From a virus, in the UHGV virus genome UHGV-0136520: a DNA stretch of 28,383 bases; one strand, 5' to 3'. The position numbers were made by a program, and so were the translations under genes. This document shows positions 2,717 through 19,093 of this stretch, in pieces (positions within the stretch are counted from its first letter, which is position 1; each line of letters opens with the position of its first letter). The notes beneath the pieces are model-generated. The model did no database searches and had not been told where the DNA came from. It saw only the letters and a list, made by a program, of their open reading frames with translations.

Positions 2717-3243
2717 TGGCGCTGCTCCATCAACTCGTTAAAGCGATTCATGAACATGCCGTATGACTGGCCTGGACGAACTGGGTTGATGATGAATAAA
2801 TCCGTTGGGATAACTCCCTGGAGGCAAGGCCACACAGAACCTTCGTCAATCTCAAAATCGCGGCGTTCGCTGGCGAGCATCACCAAATCGGCATATTTAA
2901 CGGTCGGGTGTTGCTCCGTTGGCAGGCCAAATTTCTGACGAATAGCAGCGTCTACGCGAGTTTCGATCACCTGGTAATCCGGTAACAGGCGCTTAAGCGG
3001 AGAGGGAATATCCTGCAAGTAGGCTTCGGCTGCATCATGAAGCAGTGCTTCTAATGCAAACTCCTGCGGGACGAGGTGGCTGGTTAAAACGCTATGTTGG
3101 CCGACGCTGTAAAACTCAGGTAGATGCCCTGCAAAGCGGCATAAGTGAGACAGCGCAGTAGCGATATCCTCGATCACGATATCGTCCTGTTGGATATCGA
3201 GGTAATTAAAGTGTTTGCCGGATAATGTCTGAATGTAGCTCAT
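2704..3243 (-). CDS. HD-domain phosphohydrolase (YfdR-like 5'-deoxynucleotidase family), 179 aa
   Basis: HD-domain signature: conserved His residues (ALSHLCRFAGH, HSVLTSH) followed by the HD dyad in LLHDAAEAY. Start chosen at ATG 3243 with GGAG 8 nt upstream. Confidence 0.65.
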   Translation of the reverse strand: MSYIQTLSGKHFNYLDIQQDDIVIEDIATALSHLCRFAGHLPEFYSVGQHSVLTSHLVPQEFALEALLHDAAEAYLQDIPSPLKRLLPDYQVIETRVDAAIRQKFGLPTEQHPTVKYADLVMLASERRDFEIDEGSVWPCLQGVIPTDLFIINPVRPGQSYGMFMNRFNELMEQRQCAA

Positions 3244-3335
3244 GGTTTTCTCCATATTGGCGCGCTGCACCGCGCAGATTTTGGTTGCACGAATCCCTCG
3301 CCGGGTGGCGATAATTAATGGAATTACGCTTCAAT

Positions 3336-3359
3336 AAATCCCCGCGGCGCCGGGGATTT
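3336..3359. repeat. Perfect 24-bp palindrome between the YfdQ-like and HD-protein genes
   Basis: AAATCCCCGCGGCGCCGGGGATTT is fully self-complementary. It sits in the 100-bp spacer inside the leftward operon. Confidence 0.4.
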
Positions 3360-3371
3360 AATGCAGAGCAA

Positions 3372-4199
3372 TTAGGCTTTAAAGTTACCGATGAAAGTTT
3401 CCACTGATTCACCGTCGAACTTGCTGATCAGCAAATCGCGGAATTCGTTGGCGATCGCTTCTTCCTGTGCTTCCAGTTGGACGATGCGCAGAACAAAGCA
3501 GGGTTCATCGCTGGTCAGCAGGCTGTTACGCAAGCTAAAACGGCGTTCGCCCAGACCTTCATACGGCACACATTTGAATTCAAACGCCACAGGCATTACG
3601 TCTTTGCTGCTTGCTTCAACGCTTTGCATCAGGGATTTTTTACCAGCGAAATCACTAGTTTCATGGTCCTGCTGGGTTGCTTGTTGAATGGTGATACGAC
3701 GCACAGCCTGAGCCGCCTGGGAAATCTGCATCGTATTGCCATCAGCATCAAACGCCAGCAGGTAATCGCTCCAGTCTTCCAGCCATTCAGCAATTTGCTT
3801 TTGCTTCAGACGTTGACCATCGATCTGCAGTAACGCGCGGAACGGGGCGGTTTTCTTCAGGGTGATTGAAGCAACGTTATCGGCGTGACCGGGATTATCC
3901 AGGGTGCCGATATTGAACACTGAACGGGCGGTCATGTTGTCAGCGTCAATGAAGCAACGAGCTGGCTCACTGTCGCTGGCGTAACCTTTAGAATAACGTG
4001 CGAAGTCGTCAATACTGGTTGTTGTCATTGCACCACGGAAGCGGAAACGCTCCAGAGAAAAGCGCTCAAGGCTTTCAACGTTAGTACCATCTGGCAGCAA
4101 TGCGGTCGGGCAAGCCAGGCCATGAATATCATTCAGGTGGTAGCCAGAAAGGACCAGGTCTTTTACCTGCTGAAATGTACCGCTGTCTAACTGAGACAT
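3372..4199 (-). CDS. YfdQ-like prophage protein (DUF2303-type), 275 aa
   Basis: Track ORF. Length and sequence match my recollection of E. coli CPS-53/KplE1 prophage YfdQ (about 274 aa). Sits next to the YfdR-like HD protein, as in that prophage. Confidence 0.55.
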   Translation of the reverse strand: MSQLDSGTFQQVKDLVLSGYHLNDIHGLACPTALLPDGTNVESLERFSLERFRFRGAMTTTSIDDFARYSKGYASDSEPARCFIDADNMTARSVFNIGTLDNPGHADNVASITLKKTAPFRALLQIDGQRLKQKQIAEWLEDWSDYLLAFDADGNTMQISQAAQAVRRITIQQATQQDHETSDFAGKKSLMQSVEASSKDVMPVAFEFKCVPYEGLGERRFSLRNSLLTSDEPCFVLRIVQLEAQEEAIANEFRDLLISKFDGESVETFIGNFKA

Positions 4200-4255
4200 A
4201 GAAATTCCTTATTAACTGATGATCGAAGTGGTATCAGTGAGTTTGTTGTTGCGGA

Positions 4256-4627
4256 TCACTGAGCCGCTTTAAGCTTTCCATCCACCGCGCCAGTGATCCC
4301 GAACAGCTGACCCTGATCTTCCTGCAGGATAGTGAGCTTCCCCCCTTTGTTGACCCACATCGGGGTTTCGGTTGTGTCCTCTTCGGAGGCTTTACCACGC
4401 GGTGTCGGGGTGCTGTAGTTCAGCTTGTGCTTGATCTTGACGCGCTTCTCTTCAACGGAATTACCCATACGCTCAAAATCAAATGTGAGGACTACTTTGC
4501 CTTTGTTGCCGTTGTTCAGAACGCCAAGCGCGGTGGTATTAAGTGCTGCCGCGATTTTGTTCATGAACACGCCGGCATCCAGTTCGCCAAGAAAATCTGG
4601 CACTACGGTCATGCGGTCATTACTCAT
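4256..4627 (-). CDS. Hypothetical early protein, 123 aa (YfdP-like by position)
   Basis: Track ORF with SD GAGGGT 6 nt upstream of ATG 4627. First credible gene of the leftward operon. No N-like arginine-rich motif. Confidence 0.45.
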   Translation of the reverse strand: MSNDRMTVVPDFLGELDAGVFMNKIAAALNTTALGVLNNGNKGKVVLTFDFERMGNSVEEKRVKIKHKLNYSTPTPRGKASEEDTTETPMWVNKGGKLTILQEDQGQLFGITGAVDGKLKAAQ

Positions 4628-5538
4628 GCTTTTACCCTCGTTAAGGCGGCTGCAACCGCCGAACTTTCTCCATACACAACAGAGAAGGGCACCTGCATTG
4701 GTCGGCGGCTTGCAGAGACCGCTTTCTTTTTGCCCGGGTGGATTGGGTTATGAGCCCGTCGCCCGGTGATGCCCTTTTCTGTTGCGTAAAAAGGGCGGTA
4801 CCGAGGTAGAACATTATCTTCGTCCCCCTTGCATAAGGTTGAAGACCTGGTACCGCCAAGACTACACACAGCAATACTGGAACTACGGTTATCACAGTCC
4901 TAAGCGTGATTTGGTTGTGGTTGCTGGTGCTGAACTCCAGCTCAGTGGCGCGGTGTTTCAATATCGTAACCGCCCGTTCCATCCGCGTTCGATCAGTCCG
5001 TATGCTCGCTTAGAACGTTTCGCCTGCTTATCTTTTCTCAACCGTTTGACGGTCAGCCCCGCCATTTACCACAACGAAGAGAGCACTGCCGGTGTTCGAA
5101 TCGAACGAACCTTTTCCCTGCCCAACCCTCCCAACTGAATGGGACTGTCTGGAATCGAACCAGCACTTATGCCTTGCTCGTCAATGCTCTCGTCGTTGCG
5201 CCCTGAAAAAGGCTGGCGGTTACCGGACAAGTGGGAAAACACCGGGCCGCCAGAACAGGGAGTTACTTGTTATTGCTTTAGCCTGCTTTTAACCACATCA
5301 GGCGCGGTGGTAGGTATCTTCGGGCGGGGCGCTGGCGACCAACCAGCTACAACCCCTACGGTATTTACACTCCACGCCGTGGGTTAACGGCTCCGTATCG
5401 TGGCTGAGTTTCTGTTGCTGGTGGTCAAGCCAGCTTCGCAACCCCTCCCGAAGACACCTGTCAACGAATCATCCGGTTATTCATATGCCACCGGCGGCTA
5501 CTTCGTGGGCGTCCTGCCTGTTCGCTGTTGATGAATTA

Positions 5539-12196: not shown

Positions 12197-13012
12197 ATGA
12201 ATCTGGACAATGTTTTAAAGTTTTTTGCGCCTAAAGGCATGCACATATCAGATACCAGCAGAGCGACAGCCAGTGAACAACTGACGGTTACTGATGTAAT
12301 GGCTGCACTGGGGATGACTCAAGCCGATGCTGGGATCGGGCTGGCAATGTTTTTAGGTAAAGCTGGTATCAGCAGTCAGGACAGGGAGGCGTCAATAGCT
12401 TGGCTAACGGAGTACGCGAAAGAGCATGCGCCCACGGCCATTCGCAAAGCATCAGGGAAAAAGTTTCCCCTCTGCATGTGTATCCTTGCCCGGTTTGCCT
12501 ATAACGATTATTCCTCATCAGCAGCTGATAGCGTGGCATGCCCAAAATGTAGTGGTAAAGGGTTACTTACAACCACGAAAACCGTGACTAAAAGCCATTA
12601 CACGATGCGATTGCCGCAATGGGCTAAAGACCTGAGACAGTCACCATCTGACTTTGAGGTAAAGCGTGATGTAACTGACACTGATCAAACGTTATGCTCC
12701 CGCTGCCATGGCACCGGAAAGTTAAGTAAGCGATGCCAGTGCGGCGGCACAGGTAAGACGATTGACCGTAAAGCGACAGAACTGCAGGGTGTGCCAGTTT
12801 ATAAAGAATGTAAGCGCTGCGAAGGGCGGGGATACAGCCGGCCAAAATCATCGGTTGCCTATCGAGGTATTTTTTCTGAGTTGCCGAGTTTGCCTGACCG
12901 AACGTGGCGTTATAGCTGGAAACCATTCTATGAAAGCCTGGTGACCAAATGCTTCCAGGAAGAGAGTTATTCAAACTCTCAATTGAACCGGGTGACAAAA
13001 GTGAAGATGTGA
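12197..13012 (+). CDS. Putative late-gene regulator (Q-like antiterminator by position) with four CxxCxGxG zinc-finger repeats, 271 aa
   Basis: Last gene before the late promoter/lysis cassette. Four DnaJ-type repeats: CPKCSGKG, CSRCHGTGK, CQCGGTGK, CKRCEGRG. ATG 12197 with GGAG 5 nt upstream. The functional call rests on position. Confidence 0.45.
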   Translation: MNLDNVLKFFAPKGMHISDTSRATASEQLTVTDVMAALGMTQADAGIGLAMFLGKAGISSQDREASIAWLTEYAKEHAPTAIRKASGKKFPLCMCILARFAYNDYSSSAADSVACPKCSGKGLLTTTKTVTKSHYTMRLPQWAKDLRQSPSDFEVKRDVTDTDQTLCSRCHGTGKLSKRCQCGGTGKTIDRKATELQGVPVYKECKRCEGRGYSRPKSSVAYRGIFSELPSLPDRTWRYSWKPFYESLVTKCFQEESYSNSQLNRVTKVKM

Positions 13013-13042
13013 TAAATATCGCGTGATTTAGCGTCATGATGT

Positions 13043-13097
13043 TTGCAATGTTGCCGTTTTTGTGTATATTTGACATTAACGATGGGCATTGTATGTT
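13043..13097 (+). promoter_or_regulatory. Candidate late promoter(s) (PR'-like)
   Basis: TTGCAA (13043-13048), 16-nt spacer, TATATT (13065-13070) preceded by TG. Overlapping second candidate TTGACA (13070-13075), 16-nt spacer, TATGTT (13092-13097). Read by eye only. Confidence 0.3.
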
Positions 13098-13107
13098 CAG
13101 AGTTAAG

Positions 13108-13131
13108 AAACCCGCCACCGAGCGGGTTTTT
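13108..13131 (+). terminator. Intrinsic terminator hairpin just downstream of the candidate late promoter
   Basis: AAACCCGC, loop CACCGA, GCGGGTTT followed by TTGCTTTCC. Confidence 0.45.
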
Positions 13132-13228
13132 GCTTTCCGGCGATACGACAGGGAAATTCGCGAGATGTATTGCGTTAGTTCCCCTATCACATCGTCGATC
13201 TGCAAACATCCACCAAAAGAAAACAAGG

Positions 13229-13252
13229 CCTCGCTACCAAGCGGGGTTTTTT
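13229..13252 (+). terminator. Strong intrinsic terminator (tR'-like) before the lysis genes
   Basis: 7-bp stem CCTCGCT/AGCGGGG with ACCA loop followed by TTTTTT. About 175 nt downstream of the candidate late promoter, comparable to the lambda 6S RNA arrangement. Confidence 0.6.
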
Positions 13253-13432
13253 CATATTCAGGGCTCGCTGACGGACGGCTCATAACCCAATCCGACAGGC
13301 GCTTGCGCAGAGCCCGCCACCTTTCAGGCTCACGGGAATCACTTACTACGTGCTTTGTTGATAAATCCAGCCCGTGAAGCCTGACCCTTTCATCACACAC
13401 ACAGCGCCATCCGAAAAATCGGAGGTGAGGCT

Positions 13433-13711
13433 ATGACCAGAATGAGCACCATTTACAGCAGACTTTCATATGGATCAGGAACCACGCTTGCCGGCTGCGG
13501 TGTATCAGCGAAGGCATATGCCGAAACAGCTAAAACAGCAAAAGAGGTGTCCTGGATGTTGGCCGACAGAATTGCAGGGTTAAGCCTGAGCGACTGGGCA
13601 ATTATTGTCGGTATCGCATGCACCGTTATTACCTGTGCAGTGAACTGGTATTTCCGCTGGAAAGAACGGGAGGATCGTCGCAATGGCTATGCCACCAAAG
13701 CTGAAGAATAA
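13433..13711 (+). CDS. Holin (two-TMD class, possibly pinholin-type) with dual-start motif, 92 aa
   Basis: SD GGAGGTGAGG precedes ATG 13433. N-terminus MTRM gives two Met starts separated by Arg (antiholin/holin dual start). Hydrophobic TMD WAIIVGIACTVITCAVNWYF and charged C-terminus. Overlaps the endolysin start. Confidence 0.6.
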   Translation: MTRMSTIYSRLSYGSGTTLAGCGVSAKAYAETAKTAKEVSWMLADRIAGLSLSDWAIIVGIACTVITCAVNWYFRWKEREDRRNGYATKAEE

Positions 13712-14231
13712 ACTGAGCGCAGCGGTCGTTGGTTTGATTCTTGCGGGGGCTTCTGCACCTGTGATTCTCGATCAGTTTCTTAATGAGAAAGAGGGTAATA
13801 GCCTTACGGCATACCGCGACGGTGGCGGACTCTGGACCATTTGCCGTGGCGCCACGATGGTTGATGGTAAGCCAGTAGTTCAGGGCATGAAGATGTCTTC
13901 TGAGAAATGCGCCCGGGTGAACGCCATAGAACGCGATAAGGCGCTGGTGTGGGTTGAGAGAAATATCAAGGTACCACTGACCGAACCACAGAAAGCCGGG
14001 ATTGCTTCTTTTTGCCCATATAACATCGGCCCGGGAAAATGTTTCCCGTCCACGTTCTATAAGCGAATTAATGCTGGTGACCGTATTGGCGCGTGTGAAG
14101 CGATCCGCTGGTGGATTAAAGACGGTGGCCGCGACTGTCGTCTGACCAAAGGCCAGAAAAACGGCTGCTATGGGCAAGTAGAACGGCGAGACCAGGAAAG
14201 CGCGCTGACGTGCTGGGGGATAGACCAGTGA
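13683..14231 (+). CDS. SAR endolysin (phage lysozyme with N-terminal signal-anchor-release domain), 182 aa
   Basis: N-terminal Gly/Ala-rich hydrophobic SAR segment [19 protein letters not shown], then lysozyme catalytic region ([10 protein letters not shown]...GLWTICRG) resembling phage 21 / P1 Lyz-type enzymes. Confidence 0.8.
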
Positions 14232-14755
14232 GCCTGCGCTATCAGTTCATTGCCATTTCGGTGCTGGTGGCCGTCGCATTTATCGCCGGAAACGTATGGA
14301 GCAATCGCGGCTGGGAAAAGAAGTGGGCTGAACGTGACAGCGTGGAATCATCGCAAACAGCGAACGCCCAGACCGCCGCCCGCATGATCGAACAAGGGCG
14401 TATTATTGCCCGTGATGAGGCTGTAAAAGATGCACAAGCACAAGCCGCTAAATCTGCTGCCACTGCTGCTGGCCTGTCTGCCACTGTTAACCAGCTGCGC
14501 ACCGAAGCAACAAAGCTTGCCGCCCGCCTGGACGCCGCAAAGCACACCGCAAATCTTGCCGTTGCCGTCAGAAGCAAGACAGCCGGAGCCCATGCCAGAA
14601 TGCTCGCCGACATGCTCGGAAGTATTGCAGCAGAAGCTAAACGATATGCTGGAATCGCTGATGAGCGCTATGCCGCCGGGATGACGTGTGAACGCGTTTA
14701 TGACCAAGTGAGAGAGTCAAATAACAACATGGTTGACCACATAGTGAAGCGTTGA
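14228..14755 (+). CDS. Rz-like i-spanin, 175 aa
   Basis: GTG start overlaps the endolysin stop (GTGA). N-terminal TMD ([19 protein letters not shown]) followed by an Ala/Gln-rich coiled-coil-like periplasmic domain. Confidence 0.55.
14430..14684 (+). CDS. Rz1-like o-spanin lipoprotein embedded in the +1 frame of Rz, 84 aa
   Basis: Signal peptide with lipobox ([12 protein letters not shown]) followed by a proline-rich mature region. Lies entirely inside the Rz reading frame, the classic embedded spanin arrangement. Confidence 0.55.
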
Positions 14756-14795
14756 AAACTGGTATGATTAGGCTTCACTTTTCGGTGGTGGGATT

Positions 14796-15329
14796 ATGAG
14801 AAAAGAAATAACGGTAAGCAATGCTAAGCATGAGGCAGGTCATTGGATAACGGGTTGGATACTTGAAAAGGCAAGCGAGGACATAGTCATTGCCACAACC
14901 ATAGTGGGCGATTCATATTGTGGTCGTGCCCCTCATCCGGATTTTGTTGATTTACAACAAATTAACTTTCATCTGGGTAACCGGGTTATCAACTTACTCA
15001 GCGGAGCTATATCCGAAAGCCTTGTATGTGGAGAATTTAATCGTGAGATATATAAGCATCTCATTGGCGATTACAAAGGAGCATGGCCAGATTTTTTTAT
15101 GGCTTCTGAGTTGTTCCGCTACTATTACAGGTCGTTGCATTCCTCTGAACGAGGGTCATTTGAAGAAGAGTGGAATCTTCTAATTACGAAAGCTGAAAAA
15201 ATAATTAAGCAGCATGAAATGTTTATCAATCATGTAGCAAATGAAGCTATCCGACGCCTGTCCGTCGAACAATCACAAATAACATTGTCGCAAGTTGATG
15301 TGCTAGAAATATTAAAGAATAACTCGTGA
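14796..15329 (+). CDS. Hypothetical moron protein with N-terminal HExxH motif (putative zinc-metallopeptidase-like), 177 aa
   Basis: ATG 14796. Motif HEAGH at residues 12-16. The gene is visibly AT-rich compared with flanking phage genes (not computed). No family identified. Confidence 0.4.
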   Translation: MRKEITVSNAKHEAGHWITGWILEKASEDIVIATTIVGDSYCGRAPHPDFVDLQQINFHLGNRVINLLSGAISESLVCGEFNREIYKHLIGDYKGAWPDFFMASELFRYYYRSLHSSERGSFEEEWNLLITKAEKIIKQHEMFINHVANEAIRRLSVEQSQITLSQVDVLEILKNNS

Positions 15330-15390
15330 TGAACATTCACTGAATTCCTAGGATAATGTTATATATGCTACTCTAGAAAGCGGAGGGGCA

Positions 15391-15594
15391 ATGAATATTA
15401 AAAAATACTGGTTTTTTTCATGGGTTGCTTATGACTCAGTAACGGGTGAAAAGTTACTTGAATATTCCGGTTCTGATACTTTCACCTCTGAGGAGGGAGT
15501 TAGTGCAGTTGAGGTTTTTGAGAGTTTAATGAGTGACTTTGAATCGAGAAGAGAAAATCTGAAAATACATTGCATTGCATTCAATCCTATCTAA
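15391..15594 (+). CDS. Small acidic hypothetical moron protein, 67 aa
   Basis: SD GGAGGGG precedes ATG 15391. AT-rich. Product MNIKKYWFFSWVAYDSVTGEKLLEYSGSDTFTSEEGVSAVEVFESLMSDFESRRENLKIHCIAFNPI. Followed directly by a terminator. Confidence 0.35.
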   Translation: MNIKKYWFFSWVAYDSVTGEKLLEYSGSDTFTSEEGVSAVEVFESLMSDFESRRENLKIHCIAFNPI

Positions 15595-15596
15595 AT

Positions 15597-15626
15597 AAAA
15601 AGCCTCGCGTATGTGGGGCTTTTTTA
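15597..15626 (+). terminator. Intrinsic terminator closing the AT-rich moron
   Basis: AAAAGCC, loop region TCGCGTATGTGG, GGCTTTTTT (stem AGCC/GGCT with flanking A/T pairs) followed by a T-run. Confidence 0.5.
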
Positions 15627-15738
15627 TGCGCATCGCACGCGCACATCAAAGAGAGTCTTTCAGTAGTGAGCCTGGGTAAACCGTTAACTCTTGGCGGCTT
15701 TGCCGTGCGAAAGGCTCACGTCTAAAAGGAAACCCCTC

Positions 15739-16398
15739 ATGAAATATTTATCGCTGCAGCAGGCAATGCTGGGCATGCGCGTAACAATGACCGACGACGG
15801 CCTGATTCTCAAAAGTCCTGCAGGTAGCGCACACTACGATTTAAAAGGTCGCCGCCATGCAGTTTGGGGTGATGCTTCTTTCTTCCCTGAACATCTACGT
15901 GTGAAAGATAAACGCAAACCGAAAGGTGGCCACGTCAGTTATGGCAATGGCGAAATCGTTGGCTATCGGACTGATGGTTCTATTGCCTGGCGAATGGGGA
16001 AGTTCGAAGAACCTACAAAAACGCCGAAGCCGAAGACCAGCAATGACAGCATCGATGTTAGCAAGATTCTTGACGATGCATGGAGAAGTGGTCGCCCTCT
16101 TGTCGGGGAGGCAGTTAACGATCTGGCTGAGGCTATAGCAAATGCCAGGGCATGCTCTCAAAGCTATCAGCAACATGCCTGCGGCGGTGAGACAACACCA
16201 TCTACCTATACCGTATCTATCGGTATTAACTGCAACAATGAAGCCCATACTTCTGGTATCGGTAGCAACATCTATAGCATTCTGAAAAATGCACTGGCGC
16301 GCGATAAAGCAATGCCTGATTTTGAAGAGACCATCCGTAAAGCCATCCAGAAAGAATGTCAGCCCGGTGGACTGATCTGGAATTCCCGCAGTCGTTAA
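15739..16398 (+). CDS. Hypothetical protein just upstream of cos, 219 aa
   Basis: ATG 15739 with AAAGGAAA upstream (the track's TTG start at 15691 lacks an SD). No motif I can place. Confidence 0.45.
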   Translation: MKYLSLQQAMLGMRVTMTDDGLILKSPAGSAHYDLKGRRHAVWGDASFFPEHLRVKDKRKPKGGHVSYGNGEIVGYRTDGSIAWRMGKFEEPTKTPKPKTSNDSIDVSKILDDAWRSGRPLVGEAVNDLAEAIANARACSQSYQQHACGGETTPSTYTVSIGINCNNEAHTSGIGSNIYSILKNALARDKAMPDFEETIRKAIQKECQPGGLIWNSRSR

Positions 16399-16462
16399 TT
16401 TTTACGTGTAAATGGTAACTATTATCGTTTGCGGGTCCTTTCCGGCATATCGGCGCGCTACG

Positions 16463-16474
16463 GGGCGGCGACCT
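16463..16474. other. cos: cosN (12-nt cohesive-end site, lambda type)
   Basis: Sequence GGGCGGCGACCT in the context ACG-GGGCGGCGACCT-CGC matches the lambda cohesive end as I recall it, and sits about 180 bp upstream of the Nu1 start as in lambda. Confidence 0.7.
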
Positions 16475-16640
16475 CGCAGATTCTCGCTATTTATGAAAAT
16501 TTTCTGGCATTTGCCGTTTCCGTTCTTCTTCTCGCTAATTCATTGTTTTAACTGCAAACACCCCTGAAAAGAAAGGAAACGATAAGCCTTAAAAACGGCT
16601 AAATAACTAGAGGGCGTTTCCTTTCTCTGTTTTCGTGCAT
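16475..16640. promoter_or_regulatory. cosB (terminase small-subunit binding elements R3, R2, R1)
   Basis: Lambda-like R elements: CGTTTCCGTTCTTCTTC (16514-16530), GAAAGGAAACGA (16571-16582), CGTTTCCTTTCTC (16615-16627). Confidence 0.6.
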
Positions 16641-16650
16641 GGAGTGAGCT

Positions 16651-17196
16651 ATGGAGGTCAACAAAAAGCGTCTTTCTGAAATATTTGGGGTCAGCGTGCG
16701 AACCATTCAGAACTGGCAGGATCAGGGAATGCCTGTAGCACGTGGTGGCGGAAAAGGTAATGAGGTCCTCTATGAATCTTCCGCGGCTATTGAATGGTAT
16801 TCCGCACGCGACGCGGCGATTGAGAATGAGAAATTACGCAAGGAGGTGGAAGACCTTCGTCTTGCATCGGAATCCGACCTCCAGCCAGGTACGATTGACT
16901 ATGAGCGTCACCGCCTTACCCGGGCGCAGGCAGACGCCCAGGAACTAAAAAATGCAAAAGATTCCGCTGAGGTGGTGGAAACCGCATTCTGCACGTTCGT
17001 GCTGTCGCGGATGGCCGGAGAAGTAGCCAGCATTCTTGATGGAGTTCCTCTGTCGGTTCAGCGGCGCTTCCCGGAGCTGGAAAACCGACATATTGATTTC
17101 CTCAAGAAGGACATCATTAAGGCCATGAACAAAGCAGCTGCGCTGGATGAAATAATACCGGGGTTGCTGAGTGAATATATCGAACAGTCAGGTTAA
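16651..17196 (+). CDS. nu1: Terminase small subunit (lambda Nu1-like), 181 aa
   Basis: N-terminus MEVNKKRLSEIFGVSVRTIQNWQDQGMPV and the rest closely match my recollection of lambda gpNu1. Same length as lambda Nu1. Confidence 0.9.
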   Translation: MEVNKKRLSEIFGVSVRTIQNWQDQGMPVARGGGKGNEVLYESSAAIEWYSARDAAIENEKLRKEVEDLRLASESDLQPGTIDYERHRLTRAQADAQELKNAKDSAEVVETAFCTFVLSRMAGEVASILDGVPLSVQRRFPELENRHIDFLKKDIIKAMNKAAALDEIIPGLLSEYIEQSG

Positions 17197-19093
17197 GGGG
17201 CTGCAGCACTCTGCGCGCGCAGGGCTACTTTCGCTGTACCGGCCTGAGCCGCAAACGGCGGTTGAATGGGCAGACGATAATTACTATCTCCCCAAAGAGT
17301 CGGCCTATCAGGAAGGGCGCTGGGAAACGTTGCCGTTTCAACGCGCGATCATGAATGCGATGGGTAACGACTACATTCGTGAAGTTAACGTTGTTAAGTC
17401 TGCCCGTGTTGGCTATTCAAAAATGTTGCTGGGTGTTTATGCGTATTTTATTCAGCACAAGCAGCGAAATTCCCTTATCTGGCTGCCCACTGATGGTGAC
17501 GCCGAAAACTTCATGAAGTCGCATGTTGAGCCGACGATTCGCGATATTCCGTCACTTCTGGCGCTGGCCCCCTGGTATGGCAAAAAGCACCGGGACAATA
17601 CGCTCAGCATGAAACGCTTCTCCAACGGTCGCGGGTTCTGGTGTCTGGGTGGTAAGGCGGCGAAAAACTATCGTGAAAAGTCAGTGGATGTTGCCGGCTA
17701 TGACGAACTCGCTGCTTTTGATGAGGATATTGAGAAAGAGGGTTCCCCGACGTTTCTCGGTGATAAACGTATTGAGGGCTCTGTCTGGCCCAAATCTATT
17801 CGCGGATCAACGCCAAAAACAAAGGGAACCTGCCAGATTGAGCGTGCTGCCAGCGAGTCCGGGCATTTCATGCGTTTTCATGTTGCCTGTCCGCACTGTG
17901 GTGAAGAGCAGTACCTTAAGTTCGGCGACAAAGAGACCCCGTTCGGGTTCAAATGGACACCGGGCGAACCTTCCAGCGTCTTTTACCTGTGCGAACATAA
18001 TGCCTGCGTCATTAAGCAGCAGGAGCTGGATTTCACTGAAGCTCGTTACATCTGCGACACCACCGGGATCTGGACGCGCGACGGTTTATCCTGGTTTTCA
18101 TCAACAGGCACCGAAATCGACCCGCCAGACAGCGTGACGTTTCACATCTGGACGGCATACAGCCCGTTTACCACCTGGGTACAGATCGTTAAAGACTGGC
18201 TAAAAACGAAAGGGGATACCGGAAAGCGTAAAACCTTCGTTAACACCACTCTGGGCGAAACATGGGAGCCTAAAATTGGTGAACGGCCTGACGCGGAGAT
18301 CATGGCCGAACGTAAAGAGTTTTTCGGGGCATCCGTACCGGATCGTGTTGCTTATCTGACAGCCGGGATTGACTCCCAGCTGGATCGATATGAAATGCGC
18401 GTCTGGGGATGGGGGCCCGGTGAGGAAAGCTGGCTGATTGACCGGCAGATCATTATGGGCCGTCATGATGATGAAGCTACTCTCGTCAGGGTGGACGAGG
18501 CGATTAACAAAACCTACCCCCGAAAGAATGGCGTGGAAATGTCGGTATCCCGTATCTGCTGGGATATCGGCGGTATTGACCCCACAATTGTCTACAATCG
18601 CTCAAAAAAGCATGGTCTGTTTCGCGTGATCCCGATTAAAGGGGCTTCCGTTTACGGTAAGCCTGTGGCGAATATGCCGCGTAAACGCAACAAGAACGGC
18701 GTTTATCTGACGGAAGTGGGTACAGATACCGCAAAGGAGCAGATTTATAACCGCTTCACACTTCAGCCGGAAGGGAGTGAACCTCTTGCCGGTGCCGTGC
18801 ATTTTCCCAATAACCCAGAAATTTACGATCTGGCTGAGGCACAGCAGCTTACTGCTGAGGAGCAGGTTGAAAAATGGGTGGACGGGCGTAAGAAAATCGT
18901 CTGGGACAGCAAAAAGCGACGAAATGAGGCGCTGGACTGCTTCGTGTACGCGCTGGCTGCCCTGCGGATCAGTATTTCGCGATGGCAACTGAATCTTGAT
19001 TCACTGCTCGCAAGCCTGCTGGAGGAAGAGGGGAACCGGACCAATAACAAAACCCTGGCTGATTATGCCAGGGCATTATCTGGAGATGAATAA
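17171..19093 (+). CDS. A: Terminase large subunit (lambda gpA-like), 640 aa
   Basis: Overlaps the nu1 3' end as in lambda. Length and synteny match lambda gpA (641 aa). Confidence 0.9.

Follow-up and report, generated by a model that had tools for sequence, protein, structure and literature searches.

What does the AT-rich segment between the lysis genes and the cos-proximal genes of a prophage encode, and do its genes belong together? The question is raised by UHGV virus genome UHGV-0136520, a stretch of 28,383 nucleotides (nt) that is referred to here as the window. An initial annotation, made from the letters alone, had described positions 14796–15626 as an acquired two-gene cassette with its own terminator, comprising a 177-amino-acid (aa) protein with an HExxH motif and a 67-aa acidic protein. 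Our analysis leads to a different anatomy: with a probability of roughly 0.6, the 177-aa protein is a stand-alone, active, M41-like protease whose gene forms a self-promoted moron by itself, with no dependence on the 67-aa gene. In the wider setting, the prophage is lambda-like and enterobacterial, with its nearest relatives in Citrobacter, and three independent accessory modules appear to be stacked in its hypervariable slot, which runs from the spanin gene to the cos/Nu1 region.

Neither protein had been assigned to a family in the initial annotation. For the 177-aa protein, fold and profile–profile comparisons now provide an assignment. An AlphaFold2 model was computed from an alignment of close homologues (predicted local distance difference test score 93.2; predicted template-modelling (TM) score 0.89). 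A Foldseek search of the model against the PDB returned protease domains of FtsH, AFG3L2, YME1, or FtsHi at all of ranks 1–37 (TM scores 0.50–0.65), with 3kds_E as the best match (E 1.3e-4, TM score 0.65). The top match in BFVD is A0A6J5RJ76, a 214-aa "Peptidase M41 domain-containing protein" of an uncultured Caudovirales phage (E 7.9e-5, TM score 0.67). Alignment of the family with residues 414–596 of E. coli FtsH, a query 100% identical to 7vhp_A, gave an hhalign probability of 94% (E 1.4e-7) and paired HEAGH with HEAGH (FtsH 414–418), GAISE with GGRLAEE, and GAWPD99 with GASND. At the level of single profiles, residues 10–80 match positions 12–82 of Pfam Peptidase_M41 (PF01434; E 0.0015), a profile that 13 of 42 family members match individually (best E 2.5e-6); NCBIfam FtsH_fam is matched at E 0.028 only, the unnamed family PHROG 36675 is matched at E 2.7e-13, and the Pfam Peptidase_M78 profile does not match. 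Profile searches against PDB sequences gave marginal scores (E 0.13 with the close alignment and 0.0017 with the broad, 42-sequence alignment), so that the fold search and hhalign were required for the assignment. We describe the protein as a predicted stand-alone, soluble, FtsH-type (MEROPS M41-like) zinc-peptidase domain of a divergent clade.

The alignments point to an intact active site. Residues H12, E13, H16, R63, G70, and D99 are invariant in the 42 sequences, down to 16% identity, and H12, E13, and H16 are also invariant among 17 close homologues, so the HExxH motif picked out at the start is a conserved one. D99 is the counterpart of the Asp of FtsH GASND, the third zinc ligand in the structural literature on FtsH. 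The predicted zinc ligands are H12, H16, and D99, with E13 as the predicted catalytic base, a complete M41-type constellation under strong purifying selection. As in FtsH (HflB) and its mitochondrial and chloroplast homologues (M41, PF01434), HEAGH lies in the first helix of the predicted fold and is followed by a beta-hairpin; the family motifs GAxAE and GAxxD-xxxA[ST]xL are collinear with FtsH GGRLAEE and GASNDIKVATNLAR, and the Asp ligand is conserved. The differences from FtsH are equally clear: the protein of the window comprises only 177 residues, has no AAA+ ATPase, transmembrane, or periplasmic part, lacks a segment of ~25 residues after the Asp helix, and carries an 8-residue insertion before the Asp; and FtsH is an essential housekeeping gene, whereas the protease of the window is mobile, AT-rich phage cargo. 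Specifically, the protein begins 11 residues before HEAGH, its maximum Kyte-Doolittle hydropathy over 19 residues is 0.98, and no AAA+ module, transmembrane segment, or signal peptide was found in it. It is predicted to be cytoplasmic.

Resemblance to FtsH could have another meaning. The fold is shared with the hexamer-forming FtsH protease ring, and lambdoid phage biology is tightly linked to FtsH, which would suit a catalytically irrelevant decoy that co-assembles with host FtsH or titrates partners, with consequences, for instance, for CII/CIII turnover or LpxC control. We regard such a decoy as highly improbable: identity to FtsH is only ~15–19%, the ~25-residue FtsH segment GPLLYAEEEGEVFLG is missing, and the metal ligands and catalytic Glu are strictly conserved in a family whose members are otherwise 16–25% identical. 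Strict conservation of the active site in so diverged a family argues for selection for catalysis rather than for mimicry.

The protease gene and the 67-aa gene stand out from the DNA around them. The G+C content (GC) across 14796–15594 is 0.387, against a window mean of 0.522 (standard deviation 0.04 in 799-bp windows); the segment is the deepest GC trough of the 28-kb window, and equally low windows make up only 0.04%. By gene, GC is 0.401 for the protease and 0.348 for the 67-aa gene, against 0.52–0.53, and GC at third codon positions is 0.365 and 0.309, against 0.53–0.57 in the flanking lysis and terminase genes. The foreign, AT-rich character that had been noted by eye is therefore borne out by calculation. 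The open reading frames (ORFs), the HEAGH motif (residues 12–16), the Shine–Dalgarno sequence of the 67-aa gene (GGAGG, 15382–15386, 4 nt 5′ of the ATG), and the position after the lysis cassette are likewise as first described, and the small protein is acidic, as had been proposed (isoelectric point 4.6; 11 Asp + Glu versus 6 Lys + Arg), with a beta-beta-alpha-beta fold. Independent gene calls, in 44 public contig blocks with an identical protein, give the same genes for 177-, 67-, and 219-aa proteins in the same order.

The slot itself is hypervariable. On its 5′ side lie a holin gene, a lysozyme gene (PF00959), and an Rz-like gene (DUF2514) that has a lipoprotein ORF embedded in it; on its 3′ side lie the 219-aa ORF, a Nu1-like gene, and a GpA-like terminase gene. 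The embedded ORF (14430–14684, in the +1 frame inside the Rz-like gene at 14210–14755) has a lipobox and appears to be the expected Rz1-type o-spanin, so that the lysis cassette upstream of the cargo would be complete. Close relatives carry different genes at the same slot: two small hypothetical genes in mEp237 and, in other prophages, a pair encoding 74- and 120-aa proteins, a Pkinase and PP2C pair, or a Rha-family gene, in agreement with the proposal of acquired cargo in a late-region hot spot. Nor is the cassette a core component. When its DNA was compared by megablast with 5,426 complete E. coli genomes, and at the DNA level with 50,697 phage records, only the right-hand linker was matched in either collection and neither gene was; at the protein level the protease is matched among the phage records by only 7 Klebsiella phages (29–30% identity). 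The eukaryotic-type Ser/Thr kinase (PF00069) and PP2C phosphatase pair, at positions 3285–4846 of locus L016 and 1410–2914 of locus L019, fills the protease slot in prophages that have the window's lysis cassette and 67-aa gene, and is a further candidate for exclusion or defence cargo of this hot spot.

The protease family is rare, and its members occupy diverse sites. A word-indexed search of 5.8 billion proteins returned only 16 homologues (42–97% identity), from Citrobacter freundii, Mixta calida, and unassigned assemblies, and an exhaustive profile search of 1.84 billion cluster representatives returned 44 relatives, all of 60–246 aa, with no full-length FtsH among them. All relatives examined in annotated phage and plasmid records are labelled hypothetical protein or are unannotated. 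All phage-borne lineages examined in the close family (42–100% identity) have the gene in the same place, with the spanin gene immediately 5′ of it and the terminase genes on its 3′ side, behind four lysis cassettes (holin_2/lysozyme/DUF2514; holin_8 + holin_3_7/GH19/Phage_lysis; DUF2570/LysC; and GH19 + a 229-aa spanin) and ahead of several terminase types. Distant members are found in Klebsiella phage tail/baseplate modules, in Klebsiella replicons that are catalogued as plasmids, between a tail chaperone-like gene and a contig end, in a phage early region beside DUF4238 and ERF genes, and among transposases, DUF4145, and SRAP genes. Such contexts are accessory slots of mobile elements rather than a conserved functional neighbourhood.

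The constant position immediately 3′ of the spanin gene or genes, behind four lysis cassettes and on the strand of the late operon, would also suit an accessory lysis or late-stage factor, which as infection ends would process a protein of the lysis system, the envelope, or the host. This role is rather improbable. Phages with nearly identical lysis cassettes (mEp237 and loci L014–L021) do without the protease, the sites of the more distant relatives include tail modules, an early region, the vicinity of transposases, and a CdiI/DUF4225 neighbourhood outside any phage, and the protease is predicted to be cytoplasmic, with neither signal peptide nor transmembrane segment. In addition, the gap between Rz and cos is a generic cargo slot here, and a conserved private −10 element, described below, points to expression independent of the late operon.

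Three observations concern individual gene copies. At L024 2732–3328, a 51%-identical member lies outside any recognisable phage, between DUF4225 and CdiI_2 (contact-dependent inhibition immunity) genes, which hints that the family also circulates in toxin/immunity islands. The copy of L046, from a lineage ~70% identical to that of the window, is split by an insertion of ~1.1 kb into parts at 1570–1860 and 2995–3327 and is thus a pseudogene. In P0015 and P0018, the protease and the 67-aa gene likewise seem to be present in frameshifted form.

A candidate extended −10 element, TGGTATGAT, precedes the protease gene (Table 1). In nearly all close-family lineages, an element of the form TGnTAnnnT, or TATAAT or TAGAGT without the TG, lies 25–30 nt 5′ of the start codon, and in some lineages an ATG within the element is in frame with the protease ORF. 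At a background rate of 1.65 occurrences of TGnTAnnnT per kb in the AT-rich DNA of the examined loci, the chance of at least 4 hits in 10 lineages within a 6-nt position window is P ~2e-6, a figure based on a conservative lineage count in which all alignable upstream regions were taken as one. The protease gene probably carries its own promoter, and this conserved element, which the initial annotation had not seen, appears to make the gene self-contained. Low GC is found here and in the other contexts of both genes: the protease gene lies below its surroundings in all 13 lineages, and the 67-aa gene is GC-poor in 7 of 7 contexts. The protease gene is also an obvious addition, in that some related prophages have it in this slot and others do not. 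The candidate promoter element, the GC deficit in 13 of 13 lineages, and the presence/absence pattern together fit the definition of a moron that we use here, that of Cumby et al. (PMC3594210).

A protease encoded in this way could also serve counter-defence or host takeover, degrading a host immunity protein or regulator in aid of lytic growth; that the gene is accessory, AT-rich, and horizontally mobile, has a conserved catalytic site, and falls outside known defence families would agree with such a role. However, its place at the far end of the late lysis genes would have it made too late to counter defences in the classic way, its contexts are all temperate phages or prophages, and a private promoter such as it seems to have is typical of lysogen-expressed morons. 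We consider this role unlikely.

Whether the protease gene and the 67-aa gene form a unit was addressed by blastn comparison of window positions 13000–17300 with 26 fetched loci, which defines the junctions of the modules (Table 1). The lysis module stops at 14727, homology in the cos/Nu1 region resumes at 16354–16407 (94–96% identity), and between the two genes there is a clean recombination junction at 15334/15335. The 67-aa protein occurs at 98.5% identity in at least eight loci without any trace of the protease (tblastn), where the cargo before its gene is either the pair encoding 74- and 120-aa proteins or the Pkinase and PP2C pair; a 69%-identical homologue sits behind a Rha-family gene, and a 55%-identical Cronobacter homologue lies directly behind a lysis cassette. 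In all these loci of other prophages, the gene or its homologue is immediately 5′ of the terminase genes. The protease, for its part, occurs without the 67-aa gene in most of its lineages: it is followed by a 159-aa transmembrane protein in the C. freundii lineage (79% identity), and in other lineages by an unrelated 60-aa protein, a 185-aa transmembrane protein, or an unrelated 63-aa protein, while in two further lineages a 184–187-aa transmembrane protein precedes it. By their distribution, the protease and the 67-aa gene appear to be separate mosaic modules rather than one inherited unit, and the 67-aa gene reads as the usual last gene before the terminase rather than as a dedicated partner of the protease.

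The proposal of a two-gene cassette, in which the acidic protein would be an immunity or DNA-mimic partner, is not supported by these results, since each gene occurs without the other and the junction runs between them. In a toxin/immunity or defence cassette, the HExxH protease would be the effector and the acidic protein an inhibitor, immunity protein, or sensor. We judge such a pair to be quite improbable: the 67-aa gene and its 69% homologue lie behind other cargo and the 55% homologue directly behind a lysis cassette, in each case with no protease remnant, unrelated genes follow the protease in most lineages, a recombination junction separates the two genes, and PADLOC yields nothing. In particular, no model of PADLOC-DB v2.0.0 matches the 177-, 67-, or 219-aa protein at E ≤ 1.

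Several possible relationships among the neighbouring genes were tried and rejected. The genes for the 74- and 120-aa proteins are not a broken protease gene (tblastn empty); the 63-aa gene of L043 is not a remote homologue of the 67-aa gene (hhalign probability 0.3%); and the 159-aa (L003) and 185-aa (L009) transmembrane proteins are not relatives of one another (BLASTP E 7.6). Proteins of 159–187 aa adjoin the M41-like gene, upstream or downstream, at L003 6637–7116, L040 2333–2896, and L042 2313–2867. These three proteins (L003_159, L040_187, and L042_184) share the N-terminal transmembrane motif WAFWSM, are 28–29% identical, and have no Pfam match; they could be a second recurrent neighbour of the protease or just another moron of the slot. 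The 67-aa gene has a weak promoter candidate of its own (Table 1), and GATAAT or TACAAT lies ~30–35 nt 5′ of its start in 6 of 7 contexts.

The hairpin that closes the segment proves to be composite. It consists of a 12-bp stem with a 7-bp G+C-rich core and a 4-nt loop and is followed by six T; a simple terminator scan did not list it. No hairpin separates the protease gene from the 67-aa gene. Its left arm, AAGCCTCGC, is kept in the loci that share the 67-aa module, and its right arm, GGGGCTTTTTT, is absent from them. The right arm belongs instead, with the T-run and the ~110 nt that reach to the Shine–Dalgarno sequence, to a portable 120-bp non-coding linker that is ~90% identical in mEp237, HK639, mEp043, and 72 E. 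coli genomes, where the genes on either side of it are altogether different. The linker of HK639 separates the major tail gene from gene 13, and the left arm of the hairpin there differs, with compensating changes. With the left arm derived from the 67-aa module and the right arm and T-run from the linker, the hairpin is a recombinant. Hence the "own terminator" of the initial annotation stands as a hairpin with a T-run but not as the private property of the cassette; on the comparison of these loci, it appears to be a chimeric, recurrent module boundary. The distribution suggests that terminator hairpins act as crossover points in cargo exchange. The leader of the linker is strongly structured (fold z = −3.6, with the inverted repeat GTGAGCCT...AGGCTCAC), and no Rfam family matches the linker, whose role may lie in recombination or, as a leader, in regulation. 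The linker is also present at L012 3001–3117 and L013 3001–3132, and the hairpin sequence AGCCTCGC-N4-GGGGCTTTTT recurs at ~4180–4205 of L014, directly after an Rz-like gene.

Table 1. Coordinates of features in the window, and −10 elements of the protease gene in related lineages
Feature	Position (strand)	Sequence	Distance to start codon	Remarks
Protease module	14728–15334 (+)			Common only to protease-bearing loci; homology to protease-less prophages resumes at 15335
Candidate extended −10 element of protease gene	14760–14768 (+)	TGGTATGAT (TGnTATGAT)	27 nt	Consensus TGnTATAAT, one mismatch
ORF, 177 aa	14796–15329 (+)			Predicted M41-like protease
67-aa module	15335 to ~15608–15613 (+)			93% identical in eight loci without protease
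Candidate −10 hexamer of 67-aa gene	15352–15357 (+)	GATAAT		Paired with TGAACA 15330–15335; spacer 16 nt; 9/12 matches in promoter scan
ORF, 67 aa	15391–15594 (+)			Acidic protein
Intrinsic-terminator-like hairpin and T-run	15597–15625 (+)			Fold: stem 15597–15608/15613–15624
Portable non-coding linker	15612–15732 (+)			Terminator right arm, structured ~90-nt leader, Shine–Dalgarno sequence; 15601/15616–15732 in blastn
ORF, 219 aa	15739–16398 (+)			Third independent insert before cos, from blastn
−10 element, L003/L034		TGTTATGAT	28 nt	
−10 element, L007/L037		TGCTATTAT	29 nt	
−10 element, L036		TGTTATGAT	30 nt	
−10 element, L042		TGGTATGCT	27 nt	
−10 element, L009/L045		TGTTAGAAT	27 nt	
−10 element, L043		TGATAGAAT	25 nt	
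−10 element, L023		TGTTAGGAT	28 nt	Tail module; ~20% identical relative
−10 element, L008		TATAAT	28 nt	Without TG
−10 element, L040/L041		TAGAGT	26 nt	Without TG

The third insert, the 219-aa ORF, is absent from prophages that share the 67-aa gene and the cos/Nu1 region with the window. It has no Pfam, NCBIfam, or PADLOC match. A hypothetical protein of Escherichia phage CharmingMan matches its residues 1–91 at 93% identity, an ORF of phage Fraca labelled "Fur regulated protein" matches residues 1–66 at 42% identity, and its C-terminal part has no match in the phage collection.

Several points weigh against the combined interpretation of an active M41-like protease on a self-promoted, independent gene. 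First, the PF01434 score of 18.9 bits is below the gathering threshold of 29.9, so that M41 membership rests on the fold and profile–profile evidence, and we file the protein as a divergent M41-like clade rather than as a member of the curated family. Second, there is no convincing −35 element, and a generic −35/−10 scan missed the TGGTATGAT element; the promoter is deduced at the level of consensus. Third, three diverged lineages carry both genes, namely the window type, L007/L037, and L036, the proteins of L007/L037 and L036 being 62–66% and ~52% identical to those of the window. Since the two genes share a preference for one slot, their joint occurrence is to be expected and is no proof of a functional pair, although a loose functional link may exist. 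Fourth, at least nine lineages have the gene directly 3′ of a spanin gene, which is compatible with a lysis role. Finally, literature searches returned nothing relevant on stand-alone M41 or FtsH-like phage proteases, and the empty PADLOC search leaves the protein outside the modelled defence systems.

If the interpretation holds, the module at ~14728–15334 would be a single-gene moron for a minimal, soluble, cytoplasmic zinc endopeptidase, in which H12, H16, and D99 would bind zinc and E13 would activate water. With no AAA+ unfoldase and no membrane anchor, ATP-driven unfolding and threading in the manner of FtsH would be impossible. The enzyme would instead have to act on a small number of specific proteins, or on a single one, at segments that are accessible or unstructured, a narrow substrate set being probable if only exposed or disordered segments can be cleaved, and it may form an oligomeric ring like the protease domains of FtsH. 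Transcription would start from TGGTATGAT in the repressed prophage, in addition to read-through from the late, Q-dependent operon, and in the window the transcript from the protease gene would run through the 67-aa gene to the terminal hairpin.

The biological role is a more tentative matter. Lit, a zinc-dependent HExxH protease of the E. coli e14 prophage, brings about abortive infection by cleaving EF-Tu, and by a similar logic the prophage-made protease could cleave a protein of the host or of an incoming phage. Lit resembles the protein of the window in being a single-gene, prophage-borne, cytoplasmic HExxH zinc protease without an ATPase; it differs in belonging to another peptidase family, with no similarity detected and an empty PADLOC search at E ≤ 1. 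We rank lysogenic conversion of the exclusion or abortive-infection type first among the possible roles, at clearly less than even odds, because the protein appears to be expressed from its own promoter in temperate elements and its gene lies in slots that elsewhere hold exclusion genes (HK97 gene 15, lambda bor). A bolder and more doubtful version is that the protein is the founding member of an unrecognised group of single-gene, prophage-expressed immunity or exclusion proteases that are switched on, or find their substrate, only upon infection by another phage and would then, with the logic of Lit on an M41 scaffold, cleave one particular protein of host or phage. In an exotic variant, the protease may dock onto a host AAA+ unfoldase and thereby redirect host proteolysis.

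Comparison with other known systems sets this proposal in context. A0A6J5RJ76 is, like the protein of the window, a short, phage-encoded, stand-alone M41-like domain, with only 17% identity to it; neither A0A6J5RJ76 nor PHROG 36675 has a described function. The classic morons HK97 gene 15, which has the tail chaperone gene on one side and the tape-measure gene on the other, and lambda bor, in the gap between Rz and cos, occupy the same kinds of slot: the close protease family is placed as lambda bor is, and distant members are placed as HK97 gene 15 is. They differ in that their products are unrelated and in that the terminator here is common to neighbouring modules rather than private. ImmA/IrrE anti-repressors (M78, COG2856) of phages and integrative and conjugative elements are also small, ATP-independent HExxH proteases of temperate elements; but no XRE-type repressor gene adjoins the protease of the window, whose neighbours are the spanin gene and the 67-aa gene, and the fold fits M41, an IrrE-like BFVD entry appearing only at rank 35 (E 4.6).

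The M41 proteases characterised to date are, to our knowledge, all quality-control machines that are fused to an AAA+ module and anchored in a membrane. The M41 zincin is thus known, and what appears to be new is a minimal, ATPase-less, phage-borne M41 domain that is carried as a self-promoted moron. Some 44 clusters labelled "hypothetical protein" can now be annotated as M41-like peptidases. The gap between Rz and cos can be read as a stack of independently exchanged one-gene modules with a recurrent hairpin and linker between them, a pattern useful in the mining of cargo genes. The slots of the M41-like genes elsewhere hold exclusion or defence genes, which makes it reasonable to consider the M41-like genes as candidates for phage exclusion by a single gene, as a new function. 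More generally, a family of 175–220 aa that consists of the catalytic domain only, with its metal ligands strictly conserved, and that spreads among temperate phages as apparently self-promoted cargo would show that the FtsH protease module can work, or has been re-purposed, without its unfoldase.

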